64,000 bases of DNA from Patescibacteria group bacterium (GCA_016861205.1 BOKX01000001.1:831835-895834); one strand, 5' to 3'; positions 39,605 through 46,152 are shown, counted from the first letter of the stretch. Program-made: numbers and translations. The notes: generated by a model not told the origin, from the sequence alone.

Positions 39605-42600
39605 CTAGTGTTTAACCTTACCTTCGCTCTTGGTGTCAGCTTCAGCTTTCTTAGCTGATGCGGCAGCTTTAGGATGTGGTAACAAATTCTCACCAATCGT
39701 CTTGTAATCGGGAATACCAAACCGGCGGCGGAAATTCTTGTATCTTCGGTTAGCCCGATTAAAGAAATTCAGACGGCGGCTGCCTTGATACAGGGTGTCG
39801 TAGGTTTTACCATAGTCACCCTTTAAGCGATCAATACTAAACATCGCCGCTGGAATGTAACCTAGGTTTTTGGCTGTTACCCGAATTGGGGCCAGTACCC
39901 CCCTGATTATCTTTTCACTTGTTGGCCGTTGCGCATTTCTAGCTTCTTGCGTACTGTCATACCCAGTAATAAAGTCAATTAAGAATTGTTGCATTGTCAA
40001 GCGCCCATCGTTGGCAAATGGGCTATCAAAAGTTAATTCATCTCCACTTACTTTTGTACCCTGTAGGGTTTGTCCAGATTGTTGTATCGCAGTAACGAAC
40101 GCTTCTTCCAAGGTTGGAGCGATTGCACTTTGCACTCTTTCAGTTGTTGATCGCAGGCGCTTATGCGGACTCACTCCCGGATGGGCGTTTTGGAAAACAG
40201 CAAAGAGAATCCTGAGGCGCTGAACGTATGCTTCTTTGACCTCTGGCCAGTTAATTAACTCTATACCAGTTTTCATTTTTGAAGTGTGAGCAAGAACTTT
40301 TTCGAAGTCTTCTACTAATAAATTGATGTCTGAGTGTAAGTTCTCGGCCCCACCTTTCAAGCTCGGTGGCTCAGCGATAATGTCATGATGGAAGGCTGTC
40401 GCGAATTCCTGTGTTTTCTGGTACACCTGGTCAATACGTGTCTTATTCTTTGCAAAGTACTCTGCCTTTTTACCAGTGAAAAATTCCCACGGACTGATCA
40501 CAAATGATGGCAGATAAATAAACTGCTCTCGTTCTTCTTGGGTTAACTCATTGTCGTGACCGTGGCCACCGTGAGGTGGATGAGCAGCATGGTGTTCATG
40601 TTGTAAGGTATTGCCTTTGCTGTCAACCATGTGAAAATCAACTGTACCCTCGATACCCAGTGCTTTCGAATGTAACCTTGACGATTCATGATAAATTAGG
40701 AGGGTTTGGAATCTGGTGTAAGTTGCGGACTCCGATGGCCTATGGTCCTCCCTAATCCAATTTAGGATTTTGCTGGGAGCGTGTTCAGCCCTGGGTGGCG
40801 GACTCGCCACAATTTCTGACCACTTTTTATTTTTATAGATATCATTATCCTTGAAGAAGACTTTAACTCCGGTTACTTCATTATTGTTTGAATCGAAATA
40901 CCGGACGGCCCCCCCCGTTTTATCTATTCGCAGTTTTTGCTTTTTGTCAGCAAAATTAACAACTTCCATGCTGCTTTCTTTGTCTTGTCTGTAAACTTTC
41001 GACCGGTCAATAACCTGACCTGCAGCATCCGAGAAGCTGCCATCAAGGTTTCCTGTTATTACCTCTCCATTATTCAAATTAATATGCAGTGTGGTGTAGT
41101 ACCGTGCCCATGCGTAATCATCATTACCATCATTAGCCTGCCGGGCTAACTGAATGAAAATGCCAATTTTTTGAGCCATAGTCTCAAAATAATATTGTGG
41201 AATATCAGCCCCCATCACAACGTCAAGTATTTCGCTCTTGCCCTTTGAGGCATTGTTCAGAGCTACCACAATTGGGTAGTTCTCCATCATTTTGTCCATC
41301 TTATGCAATGGAGGTGGAGAAATGCCAACGGCCAAGTAGTTCATGAAAATCTTGACCCGGCCACCGCTTAACACAAACATAGTATAGGCCATGCGAATAA
41401 TGCCGTCGATTTCAGCATCACTGTATTTCCGAGTCACCCCAGGCTCACCATAGCTTTGTACATTGTTCCAGTAAGTTGTCTCAACACCCAAAGCGTCAAC
41501 TTCTTTCGACCGCTTTGCATTTTTCAGGAACTCCGACTTGAGGCGATCTGCTATTTTCTTGTGCATTTGCCCCTCACCACTCATCCATCTGCTGCGATCA
41601 AAGGAAAAAGTGCCCTCTGTCACTTTCTCTAGAACTTCAGCAAGCGGAATTGGATCTCCTTTTTCATCGATTTGACTAACAAGCTGTTTCTCAACAAAAT
41701 CTCCCACCTCTTCAGTCATGTATTCTTCAATTCGATCACTTATGGCTCTGATGTCAGCACCGTACTCGAAGTTGTTTTCTAGCCGGTTGTGTTCCTTCTC
41801 CTCGTCGGACTTTCCAGCATCATAGGGTCGGGTGCCATAAAAGTACTGAAAGTCGTCAGCTGAAAATTCTGGGAAAAACTTAAACCATTCCTCGAAATCA
41901 CCACTACCTAATGCCGAATCACCATACGGACCCATTTTATCGATGAACAGCAACCGTCTGCGCAAATTTTCGTGATACGTAACCAAATGTTCTTTGTAGT
42001 ACTTCTTATCACTTGGCTCTGAACTCGTTGCTAATGTGCTTAGATAGTCAGACAAATACTGATAAGGTCGACCCTCATTAGATTGGCTAAACAAAGCCTG
42101 CTTCGAGTATGCCATCTCTTCTGCTTCAAGGTTATCGACGTGCTGTTTAACTAGTGCTGGAAACGTATCAGGATGAGTTGTCCGTAATTTATCATAAAAA
42201 ACTTTCCAGGCAGGAAAGTCTTCTGCAACTGGATAATCAAAATTAGTCGGCTGCACATTTATTCTATTCACTCCGTTTGCTACCACAGACTCAATCTTTC
42301 TGCGTACTGCTTTCAAGTTGTTCACTTGAATATCGAGAGTAATGAACCTCCGGTTAAAAGCCCGATCAGATCTGTCGAGCTGATCTATTTGCTTGGCAAA
42401 GTACTCAAGCAAAAAATCTACTCTGTCTGAATCACCAGCCACTGGATCATTGTTTGCTACCACAACACGGTCGTAGAGATCTCTAACTTCTTCAAACCTC
42501 TCGAAGTACTCCTGATTCTCAGAAAATAGCCAGGCTTCCAGTTGAGCATCACCAGGAAAAACATCTTGATAGTCGCCTGTGTATTCTCCCAACAAAACTT

Positions 42601-44961: not shown

Positions 44962-46152
44962 CTACGCCGCCGCTTCGGGCGCGGCCGAGCCAGAGGTTTC
45001 ACTCGGAGCCGGAGCCGGTGTGGTTGCTGTTGTATTTGCACTGGTTGCCTCCACCTTCAGCAACTTCGCCAACGGCTTTTTGGCGGTATCAGTTTCTTGA
45101 TAATTCTGCAACAGCAGGTCTTTGTAAATCTTGTCGCTCAAGGTTTTCTTGTTTTCAGTCAGTGCAGCTCCTAGCTGCACCTTAACTACTCGCCAGCGCT
45201 TAGTTCGGACTTCCGTCTGGTCGTTGCTGAATAGGAACTTACAGATTTCGTTCAGTACCACCAGCAAATCGGCTGGTTGTTCACTTTTTAGTTTGGCCTC
45301 AATGGCATCACGCTCGGTGGAACTTTCGCCAAAACCATTGCTAAACAATGCTCCCTCACCATCTTTGCACGCCCGCAGCAGCGCTTCTGAGAGTTTCTTC
45401 GGATTATTCTTGAGCAGGTCTTCAAACTCATCTTTGGTGAAGTGTTTACTGCGTTCCTCCGGTTCAAAGCCACCTTCGGTACCTAGACCGCCGTGGCTGT
45501 CAGATGCAAAAAAGAAGTTGTTAATGAAGTCGCCCATTCGGACACCCTTCCAGTCACCACCCCACCACTTCTGAAGATCAACAGCGCCAGCCTTAAACAT
45601 GTTGACCATTCGCTCTTTCCAAGCTGCACGAAATTTTTCCACCTTAGCCTTGGCCTCAGGTTCACTGGTCCCGGTGGCAGCCATTTCTTCCTCAACCAGC
45701 ACGGCTTCAACATTTTCAGGGGTTAGCTCTTGGCCATCGAGTTTTTGCAAAACGGTGTCGGCAAACACCTCCACCTTCTGTCGGATCGTCACCGCTGGTG
45801 TCGCTTCGGCCGCAGCCTGAAGGCTGGCTACCGATTGGTTCTCACTGGCGGTTTGAAGCGTGTTTTGCGTCGGGTCTGGCACTTCACCGGCTACAGCTTG
45901 GCGCATGCTGTCCACCGACATACCTTTGCCAGCGACCTGAATGGCTGGCTCACTAGTCACTTGCTCACCAAGCGCCTGGGGCTGAGCTGGAGCGGGAGTT
46001 TCTGACGACGAAGCAGCCGCAGGACTTGGGGTTTCAGCTGGACGGGCACTCACGTTTTCGGCCGGCACAGTCGTCTCTAACTTGATCAAGTTCTCGGCGG
46101 GTTTGGGAGCTGAGACTGGTGGGGGTGAACCTTCAAAACCGGCTTCGTTCAT
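44962..46152 (-). CDS. Hypothetical protein, Ala/Pro-rich N-terminal region
   Basis: First gene of the minus-strand trio. Transcribed divergently from the 46491 gene. Confidence 0.5.
   Translation of the reverse strand: MNEAGFEGSPPPVSAPKPAENLIKLETTVPAENVSARPAETPSPAAASSSETPAPAQPQALGEQVTSEPAIQVAGKGMSVDSMRQAVAGEVPDPTQNTLQTASENQSVASLQAAAEATPAVTIRQKVEVFADTVLQKLDGQELTPENVEAVLVEEEMAATGTSEPEAKAKVEKFRAAWKERMVNMFKAGAVDLQKWWGGDWKGVRMGDFINNFFFASDSHGGLGTEGGFEPEERSKHFTKDEFEDLLKNNPKKLSEALLRACKDGEGALFSNGFGESSTERDAIEAKLKSEQPADLLVVLNEICKFLFSNDQTEVRTKRWRVVKVQLGAALTENKKTLSDKIYKDLLLQNYQETDTAKKPLAKLLKVEATSANTTATTPAPAPSETSGSAAPEAAA

Follow-up and report, generated by a model that had tools for sequence, protein, structure and literature searches.

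A stretch of 64,000 nucleotides (nt) from the 1.149 Mb chromosome of a Patescibacteria group bacterium (GCA_016861205.1, BOKX01000001.1:831835-895834; hereafter the window, with positions counted from its first letter) carries a type IV secretion system (T4SS) cluster next to dnaA. At the heart of this essential T4SS locus lies a cassette that is clearly hypervariable within the species, and the genes of this cassette are the only swapped parts of an otherwise almost invariant cluster. The cassette encodes A1369, a giant, signal-less, mostly alpha-helical, and modular protein of 1369 amino acids (aa), together with its partner B394; C396, the next gene, lies at the edge of the variable block. 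The T4SSs described in Saccharibacteria are dnaA-proximal, lack a relaxase, are related to the MPF-FATA type, and are essential for epibiotic growth, and no substrate is known for them (PMC12102498; PMC10633639); the cluster in the window matches this description. As A1369, B394, and C396 have neither a Sec signal nor a transmembrane (TM) segment, the T4SS is their only evident exit, and we therefore favor, at a probability of about 0.42, the possibility that A1369 and its partner represent an exchangeable, T4SS-loaded pair of exported proteins directed at the host.

Comparison with three strains (L002, L006, and L003), which share the flanks of the locus at 91-96% DNA identity, delimits the cassette. 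The flank proteins PrgI, E1456, D659, I341, and H1125 and a 210-aa protein are 97-99.7% identical among strains, and the flanking genes are under purifying selection, with ratios of nonsynonymous to synonymous substitution rates (dN/dS) of 0.01-0.10 at synonymous rates (dS) of 0.03-0.22; the exception is D659 compared with L006, where dN/dS is 0.28 at a very low dS. In blastn comparisons, DNA identity collapses within ~60 nt at ~38300-38380, inside the gene for the membrane protein G564, and the other border is found at ~44960 (against L006) or 45408 (against L002). The hypervariable block thus delimited (38320..44961, extending to ~45407 relative to L002) holds the 3' end of G564, F264, A1369, B394, and, in one strain, part of C396. 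Four haplotypes of the block were seen. In L002, the A position is occupied by a protein of 1112 aa without detectable similarity to A1369, which could be linked to the same family only via the members P0019, P0022, and P0014; the B position (408 aa) has no detectable similarity to B394, the C position is 61% identical to C396, and a gene like F264 is absent. In L006, the A position encodes 1293 aa with patchy ~28% identity to A1369, the B position (568 aa) is unrelated to B394, the C position is 93% identical to C396, and the F264-like gene is barely recognizable, has moved, and is on the other strand. L003, in which the A and F264 positions lie beyond the contig, combines a C position that is 51% identical to C396 with a B position that is 78% identical to B394, and the block is hence a mosaic. 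Presence or absence across strains, a check that an earlier reading of the window from its sequence (the sequence-only reading) had proposed, thus revealed replacement of a whole block among near-identical strains.

The cassette genes also differ from the flanks in GC content at third codon positions (GC3; 0.34-0.43 versus 0.50-0.61). For the C position, dS between alleles is saturated (1.5-1.9) with a dN/dS of ~0.2; this indicates alleles that are old and functional and that were acquired by recombination rather than generated by rapid drift. No flanking repeats, integrase, or transposase were found at the cassette, which fits homologous recombination through the conserved flanks, and the borders of the block fall inside coding sequences, as homologous recombination predicts. 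Saccharibacteria are naturally competent, which makes this route plausible (PMC10633639).

A1369 (39605-43714, minus strand, ATG start) belongs to a real protein family that has no earlier description and whose alpha-helical architecture is new; among the papers searched, none describes this giant family or the polymorphism of the cassette. An exhaustive phmmer search with residues 110-1309 against 1.84 billion cluster representatives retrieved 21 proteins with 24-32% identity to the query and lengths of 1077-1369 aa, except for one 789-aa sequence that appears truncated. According to a local phmmer domain map, an N module (residues ~120-475; 42290..43357, minus strand), with W156, W395, R456, and N465 invariant in alignment A3, is common to ~13 members, and the members that carry it have at least 3 to 5 mutually unrelated C halves. 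Conversely, the C module of A1369 ("type I"; residues ~480-1310, with ~450-1260 on the domain map; 39785..42277, minus strand) is common to 10 members, 4 of which have a different N-terminus. In combining one conserved N-terminal module with exchangeable C-terminal ones, the family has the layout typical of polymorphic toxins (LXG, Rhs, CDI, and X-Tfe/X-Tfi). A further insertion of 110 residues (residues ~870-980; 40775..41107, minus strand) is private to A1369, as it corresponds to a gap in 10/10 homologs (alignment A2), and was modeled with a predicted local distance difference test score (pLDDT) <50. A1369 contains no cysteine among its 1369 residues, and other members of the family contain few, which may be related to passage via a narrow channel or to an oxidizing site of action.

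The sequence-only reading had described three co-directional minus-strand genes encoding 1369, 394, and 396 aa inside a T4SS locus, and both gene anatomy and setting hold, with exact coordinates and with pilins, PrgI, a TraC-like protein, VirB4, and dnaA around these genes. Its claim that the products lack a signal peptide or TM segment was upheld by a crude hydropathy test (Kyte-Doolittle, 19-residue window), in which none of the three proteins showed a window with a mean >1.6 or a hydrophobic N-terminus. The reported compositional bias of the termini is also real: B394 is rich in P, E, S, T, A, and Q, C396 has A/P/S/T-rich ends, and A1369 ends in a K-rich tail.

Nine contigs offer sufficient context to place the family in its locus (the window, L002, L006, L009, L010, L011, L012/L013, L014, and L015). 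In 9/9 contigs, there is one family member, which lies just behind a partner gene of 394-1356 aa on the same strand (gap or overlap, 0-74 nt) and is convergent with a G564 homolog of 525-594 aa; I341-like and H1125-like genes and the T4SS pilin array come next wherever the contig reaches that far. The gene table of a tenth contig is compatible with the same arrangement. G564, I341, H1125, and D659 are recognizably conserved across distant loci; the partner genes are dissimilar in sequence among loci, with proteins of 408-1356 aa at the B position outside the window, and 6/7 are acidic and hydrophilic. The concern, raised at the outset, that relatives might be conserved outside T4SS contexts did not materialize, as the A1369 family was seen solely in T4SS loci (9/9 contexts). 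The combination of orphan genes in a T4SS locus, replacement as a block, and a family confined to T4SS loci partly supports the idea of an effector, and the proposal of the sequence-only reading that these genes encode candidate T4SS substrates is reasonable and gains strength from the comparative data; the specifics of toxin, immunity protein, and chaperone did not fare as well, as described below.

The same data bear on the notion that the block could be an unrelated selfish or defense island that was inserted by chance in the T4SS locus. Its deviant GC3, sharp borders, and orphan genes would fit an island of this type; the A1369 family does, however, keep one and the same place with respect to the T4SS genes even in distant loci, which have nothing but these T4SS genes in common, the borders of the block lie within coding sequences with no integrase, transposase, or flanking repeats, and PADLOC, PHROGs, plasmid, phage, and viral-contig searches gave no matches, including no A1369-family homolog on plasmids, phages, or viral contigs in the databases searched. 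We consider an island of this kind highly improbable.

By contrast, a serious competitor, and the main one to the exported-protein reading, is that A1369 and its partner form a variable cytoplasmic subunit of the T4SS with a structural or regulatory role, i.e., an alpha-solenoid platform docked on the tail of the short VirB6-like protein G564. This platform would be an in-trans equivalent of the in-cis ARM-repeat extensions of Saccharibacteria membrane proteins of 1000-1100 aa, and its variability would stem from interfaces that co-evolve and are exchanged together. The presence of exactly one copy in the same slot of 9/9 loci agrees with such a subunit, as do a helical, solenoid-like fold with generic matches of the karyopherin or nucleoporin type, the lack of conserved residues of a catalytic type, and the co-variation of the G564 tail with the cassette; in addition, Southlakia SEML1_0011 and SEML1_0013 bear ARM-repeat domains according to structure-based annotation (supplement, PMC10633639). 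Three observations weaken this explanation: identity between these strains is 98-99.7% for the core parts PrgI, D659, E1456, I341, and H1125, it is not obvious why one species would keep several ancient, mutually unrecognizable alleles of an internal subunit, and the exchange of whole C halves for unrelated ones is hard to square with a fixed structural role. We thus regard a subunit of this type as possible but, on balance, doubtful.

G564 (36920..38614, plus strand) links the cassette to the channel. It is a polytopic membrane protein, with TM segments assigned by hydropathy and a signal-like N-terminus, and its homologs in L009-L011 were matched at E 1e-95 to 1e-108; position and topology suggest that it is VirB6-like, and no Pfam VirB6 match was obtained. 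Relative to sister strains, its identity is >=0.94 in the membrane core and 0.07-0.47 past residue 450. With the left border of the block inside G564, the last ~100 residues of this protein change along with the cassette, and its allele-specific C-terminal tail (residues ~470-564; 38327..38614, plus strand) is cytoplasmic and basic. Public gene calls give G564 556 aa and H1125 (32024-35401) 1100 aa, and homolog alignments begin at residue 9 of G564 (36920-38614) and residue 26 of H1125; judged from these alignments, the start codons listed for both genes are probably too far upstream.

Upstream of A1369, B394 (43718-44902, minus strand; 394 aa) begins with a TTG start preceded by AAGAAGG, and only 3 nt separate the two genes. 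B394 has an isoelectric point of 4.2 and is largely disordered, with P, E, S, T, A, and Q making up a fraction of 0.58-0.77 over residues 100-394. Several open reading frames overlap it on the opposite strand; a dN/dS of 0.43 against the 78%-identical homolog in L003 nevertheless indicates that B394 is a genuine gene. C396 (44962-46152, minus strand; 396 aa, ATG start) is acidic with A/P/S/T-rich ends and shows 93%, 61%, and 51% identity to its counterparts in L006, L002, and L003, respectively. The three genes had been called an operon; this description suits A1369 and B394, but C396 lies 59 nt upstream of B394, and in a sister strain a gene on the opposite strand intervenes between the C and B positions. 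The suggestion that the smaller proteins are small acidic chaperones was likewise not borne out, as both B394 and C396 are ~40 kDa and largely disordered, unlike small folded secretion chaperones, and C396 is conserved among sister strains and lacks a tight coupling to B394. Classic secretion chaperones (e.g., VirE1, IcmS/W, and class I chaperones) are acidic, folded proteins of ~10-20 kDa encoded next to their substrates; B394 is acidic and adjacent, but has 394 aa and is disordered. It could still act like a chaperone or adaptor.

F264 (38745..39539, plus strand; GC3 0.34), a small basic protein encoded within the variable block, is convergent with A1369. It is missing from L002, and its very diverged homolog in L006, recognizable by its MSWIKD... 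start and basic tail, lies elsewhere in the allele on the other strand. A perfect 19-nt inverted repeat, GCAGATTTACCTGATCAAC, has one arm at 39018-39036 in F264 and the other at 43405-43423 in A1369, and, as these genes are on opposite strands, both arms encode the peptide ADLPDQ; chance alone would give about 1e-4 such matches in the region, and the repeat may have arisen by micro gene conversion or be left over from a common origin.

Searches for function and relatives were largely negative. No Pfam, NCBIfam, PHROGs, or PADLOC family matched A1369, B394, or C396; F264, D659, H1125, and I341 gave no meaningful match to Pfam, NCBIfam, or PHROGs, and E1456 gave a single weak PHROGs match. PADLOC also had no match for 8 cassette proteins from three alleles. 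Neither VirB1-11 nor the Prg/Trs families of MPF-FATA systems in Pfam and NCBIfam matched A1369, B394, C396, F264, or D659. A Pfam scan of the 21 family members and of the cassette genes of the other alleles produced chance matches below the gathering cut-off, and the only real match was a pentapeptide-repeat protein in L009. Sequence searches of the PDB with single proteins and with the family profile yielded only noise, a word-indexed search with the single sequence and the family profile returned A1369 itself and nothing else, GTDB representative genomes contained no match to A1369 or D659, and metagenome contigs from JGI contained none to D659. The library searches thus gave no housekeeping, phage, plasmid, or defense assignment to any cassette gene, and the housekeeping function that was feared for A1369 and its neighbors was not assigned by structure-based searches either.

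Structure prediction with AlphaFold2 gave an all-alpha model for the N half of A1369 (pLDDT 76.5, predicted template modeling score [pTM] 0.49) and a mostly helical model with a few small sheets for the C half (pLDDT 62, pTM 0.67); these models rest on shallow family alignments of 13 and 11 sequences, respectively. Fold searches with the models produced only generic karyopherin- or nucleoporin-type matches and no toxin or enzyme fold. The family columns that are conserved at >=90% comprise W, G, P, S, R, F, L, A, N, Q, Y, and a single Asp, but no His, Cys, Glu, or Lys; with no fold match in addition, nothing indicates an enzyme or a known toxin. The sequence-only reading was thus right that no enzymatic domain is recognizable, as none emerged from any sequence or structure search, and its proposal of a toxin lost ground for the same reason. 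Two candidate sites in A1369 were considered and rejected. The His-rich patch HEHHAAHPPHGGHGH, to which attention had been drawn earlier, is indeed present (residues 1039-1053; 40556..40600, minus strand), but it lies within an allele-private insertion and is not conserved in the family, and it was rejected as a functional metal site; an S-x-x-K-like motif around S1145 was rejected as a catalytic site, as some members have R at the K position and the fold is a helical one.

Immunity genes were also not apparent in any consistent way. The gene downstream of the family member is absent in L002 and L010, is on the opposite strand in the window (F264), lies elsewhere in L006, and is an unrelated pentapeptide-repeat gene in L009, which speaks against the earlier proposal that immunity proteins are encoded here. 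The L009 gene (13705-14454 of that contig, just downstream of P0014; Pfam E 5e-33) belongs to a class that includes DNA mimics protecting gyrase from toxins, and this single case provides only a hint of a possible immunity-like function. These findings bear on the idea that the cassette is a self/non-self (exclusion or kin-recognition) or interbacterial-competition module used among competing epibionts and not against the host, in which a polymorphic T4SS-delivered protein would be accompanied by a cognate protective partner, in analogy to the exclusion groups of TraG/Eex or to pairs of polymorphic toxins and immunity proteins. Such a module could account for several discrete haplotypes in one species, for the joint replacement of linked genes including the VirB6-like tail, for the conserved N module with its variable C half, and for the extra small genes of some alleles (F264, a 267-aa gene in L006, and the pentapeptide-repeat gene in L009). 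However, no recognizable toxin domain was found, there is no consistently adjacent immunity-like gene (none in L010 and L002, and F264 is on the opposite strand and has moved in L006), and known exclusion proteins are small membrane proteins, none of which is evident in the cassette; we thus view a competition module as decidedly unlikely.

The reading that we favor, in which A1369 and B394 are exported, would operate as follows. Once loaded onto the T4SS, the pair would leave the cell via its conduit and act either on the host bacterium or within it; A1369 would be docked at or recognized by the machine through its conserved N module and its hydrophilic C-terminal tail, and the allele-specific tail of G564 is a candidate contact or docking site. 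Host-specific binding or scaffolding would fall to the variable C-terminal half, and ancient alleles would be moved between strains by homologous recombination via the conserved flanks, such that one species keeps several. A tube-like conduit joining parasite and host has been visualized by cryo-electron tomography in Mycosynbacter (PMC11880426). The single slot, the conserved module with interchangeable halves, the co-replacement of a partner and of a channel segment, and the occurrence of several old alleles in one species whose machine is otherwise nearly invariant together point to a component that meets another organism. Known cases of this pattern include polymorphic effectors and toxins, the receptor-binding proteins of phages, and determinants of exclusion. 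As a bolder extension, the cassette might represent a host-specificity cartridge, in which alleles of a T4SS-delivered scaffold, its partner, and a matching VirB6 tail would set which hosts can be parasitized and would be maintained by an arms race with these hosts; we consider this extension unlikely.

Several observations weigh against export. One copy in a fixed slot of every locus is typical of a machine component, and exactly one family member per fixed slot fits a variable machine subunit as well as it fits cargo, which tempers the idea of a putative effector. That no toxin, enzyme, or known effector fold was found would suit an effector of the scaffold type, but it would suit a structural protein just as well, and the negative fold searches, with shallow alignments behind the models, amount to weak to moderate evidence. 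The tail of A1369 (last 25 residues; 39608..39682, minus strand) is hydrophilic and K/E/Q/A-rich with 6 K/R versus 3 D/E, and a short hydrophilic tail of this type ends most members, including those with unrelated C modules; the positively charged translocation signal proposed by the sequence-only reading is not supported in that form, as the family tails are lysine-rich yet close to charge-neutral, and the tail criterion, which 11/22 family tails and 2/45 window genes satisfy, was set post hoc after inspection of the data. Patescibacteria homologs of the type IV coupling protein (T4CP) are often distant from virB4. The only coupling-protein candidate in the window, a T4CP-like protein of 778 aa (4764-7100), is encoded ~50 kb from virB4 and has only weak matches (TrwB_AAD_bind, E 1.7e-7; DUF87; HerA/FtsK-like), and the T4CP homolog of Southlakia is not essential (PMC12102498). 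Finally, the A1369 family is rare, with 21 representatives, and the gene table published for the T4SS cluster of Southlakia shows no evident counterpart; A1369 thus cannot be a universal substrate of Patescibacteria T4SSs.

The cassette resembles several known systems in logic rather than by membership. CagA, which is translocated by the cag T4SS of Helicobacter pylori, is a signal-less, largely helical orphan of ~120-145 kDa that acts as a non-enzymatic scaffold, varies between strains, and has a charged C-terminal signal region and a dedicated chaperone, CagF. By analogy only, A1369 is likewise giant, signal-less, helical, encoded in a T4SS locus, strain-variable, and accompanied by a dedicated partner. 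A1369 has, however, no sequence or detectable fold similarity to CagA, and its alleles differ by replacement of whole unrelated modules, whereas CagA varies mainly in repeat motifs; in addition, the target proposed here is bacterial, the T4SS here belongs to the monoderm MPF-FATA type, and the partner at the B position is far more disordered than CagF. The X-Tfe effectors of Xanthomonas and Stenotrophomonas, which are delivered to other bacteria by a T4SS, share with the A1369 family a modular design with one conserved module and varied others, but they have recognizable toxin domains (e.g., peptidoglycan hydrolases or lipases), an XVIPCD at the C-terminus to which VirD4 binds, and neighboring genes for lipoprotein immunity proteins (X-Tfi), none of which was found in the cassette.

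Firmicutes LXG proteins with their Lap partners are similar in their monoderm setting, helical N module, interchangeable C parts, tightly linked upstream acidic or helical partner, and exchange as a cassette. LXG proteins use another secretion system (type VII), need their Lap partners for export, and carry small, often recognizable C-terminal toxins followed by immunity genes; the variable half of the A1369 family, unlike these toxins, spans ~700-900 aa and lacks a toxin signature. TraG/Eex of SXT/R391 and F-like elements and the extended VirB6 proteins of Rickettsiales provide a parallel for a VirB6-like segment that is allele-specific and co-varies with a partner locus, and in TraG/Eex the co-varying segment defines specificity groups within otherwise near-identical transfer systems; the partner of TraG is, however, a small inner-membrane exclusion protein in the recipient, whereas the proteins here are giant and soluble and no exclusion protein is evident. 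Genes in the T4SS region of Nanosynbacter lyticus TM7x have been proposed to encode secreted effectors as a "putative effector array" (McLean 2020, PMC7427843; Hendrickson 2022). These TM7x proteins are small, have Sec signals, match the T4SS pilin family PF18895, and are unrelated to the giant signal-less A1369 family; the "effectors" proposed so far for Saccharibacteria T4SSs are thus pilins.

With regard to the wider setting, the order of genes across the locus is pilins, H1125, I341, G564, F264, A1369, B394, C396, D659, tRNA-Arg, E1456, the 210-aa gene, PrgI, TraC-like, VirB4, and dnaA. The genes dnaA, dnaN, and yidC adjoin the T4SS cluster with its PrgI (53912-55054), TraC-like protein, and VirB4/TraG P-loop ATPase (56452-58518), with dnaA next to the ATPase gene. 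Six genes with the T4SS_pilin domain (PF18895) form two separate arrays (22255-24258 and 29340-31621), which include unusually long members of 430 and 234 aa with a C-terminal pilin domain. The assignment to Saccharibacteria-like Patescibacteria relies on the 1.15 Mb size of the chromosome, the PF18895 pilin arrays, the position of the T4SS beside dnaA, and the likeness of the locus to those already published, and the bacterium that carries the locus is tiny and probably leads a parasitic lifestyle. The divergent intergenic region of 338 nt between C396 and the conserved D659 (46153..46490) is a presumed promoter region; a scan of this region for promoter and terminator consensus sequences found no enrichment above shuffles. 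A tRNA-Arg(CCG) gene (48621-48689, minus strand) lies inside the cluster between D659 and E1456. E1456 (48837-53207; 1456 aa) varies little among strains (98% identity). Its features are two TM segments (~988-1117), a Cys-rich C-terminal region with a HELGH zinc-peptidase-like motif, and, at residues 907-1051, a weak PHROGs match that is tape-measure-like; its positional equivalent in L009 bears Peptidase_M23, and E1456 may be a cell-wall-remodeling (VirB1-like) component. Upstream of the T4SS region, two neighboring genes (14824-17836) encode an ATP-dependent DNA ligase (590 aa) and a Fic-domain protein (384 aa), and the latter could be a candidate host-modifying enzyme.

Swapping of the kind seen here is expected for a part of a machine that meets another organism, and the locus supplies concrete candidates, the best at present, for what a Patescibacteria T4SS of this kind delivers or employs to engage the host. 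If A1369 and its partner are a structural or regulatory subunit, the cassette would represent an unexpected mode of within-species polymorphism of a secretion machine. If, on the other hand, they are exported, the cassette would provide a handle on the host range and strain-level ecology of ultrasmall parasites, with potential use, for example, in the control of foaming in wastewater, and, should its alleles indeed act as a cartridge that sets host specificity, they would encode the first identified substrates of a Patescibacteria T4SS.

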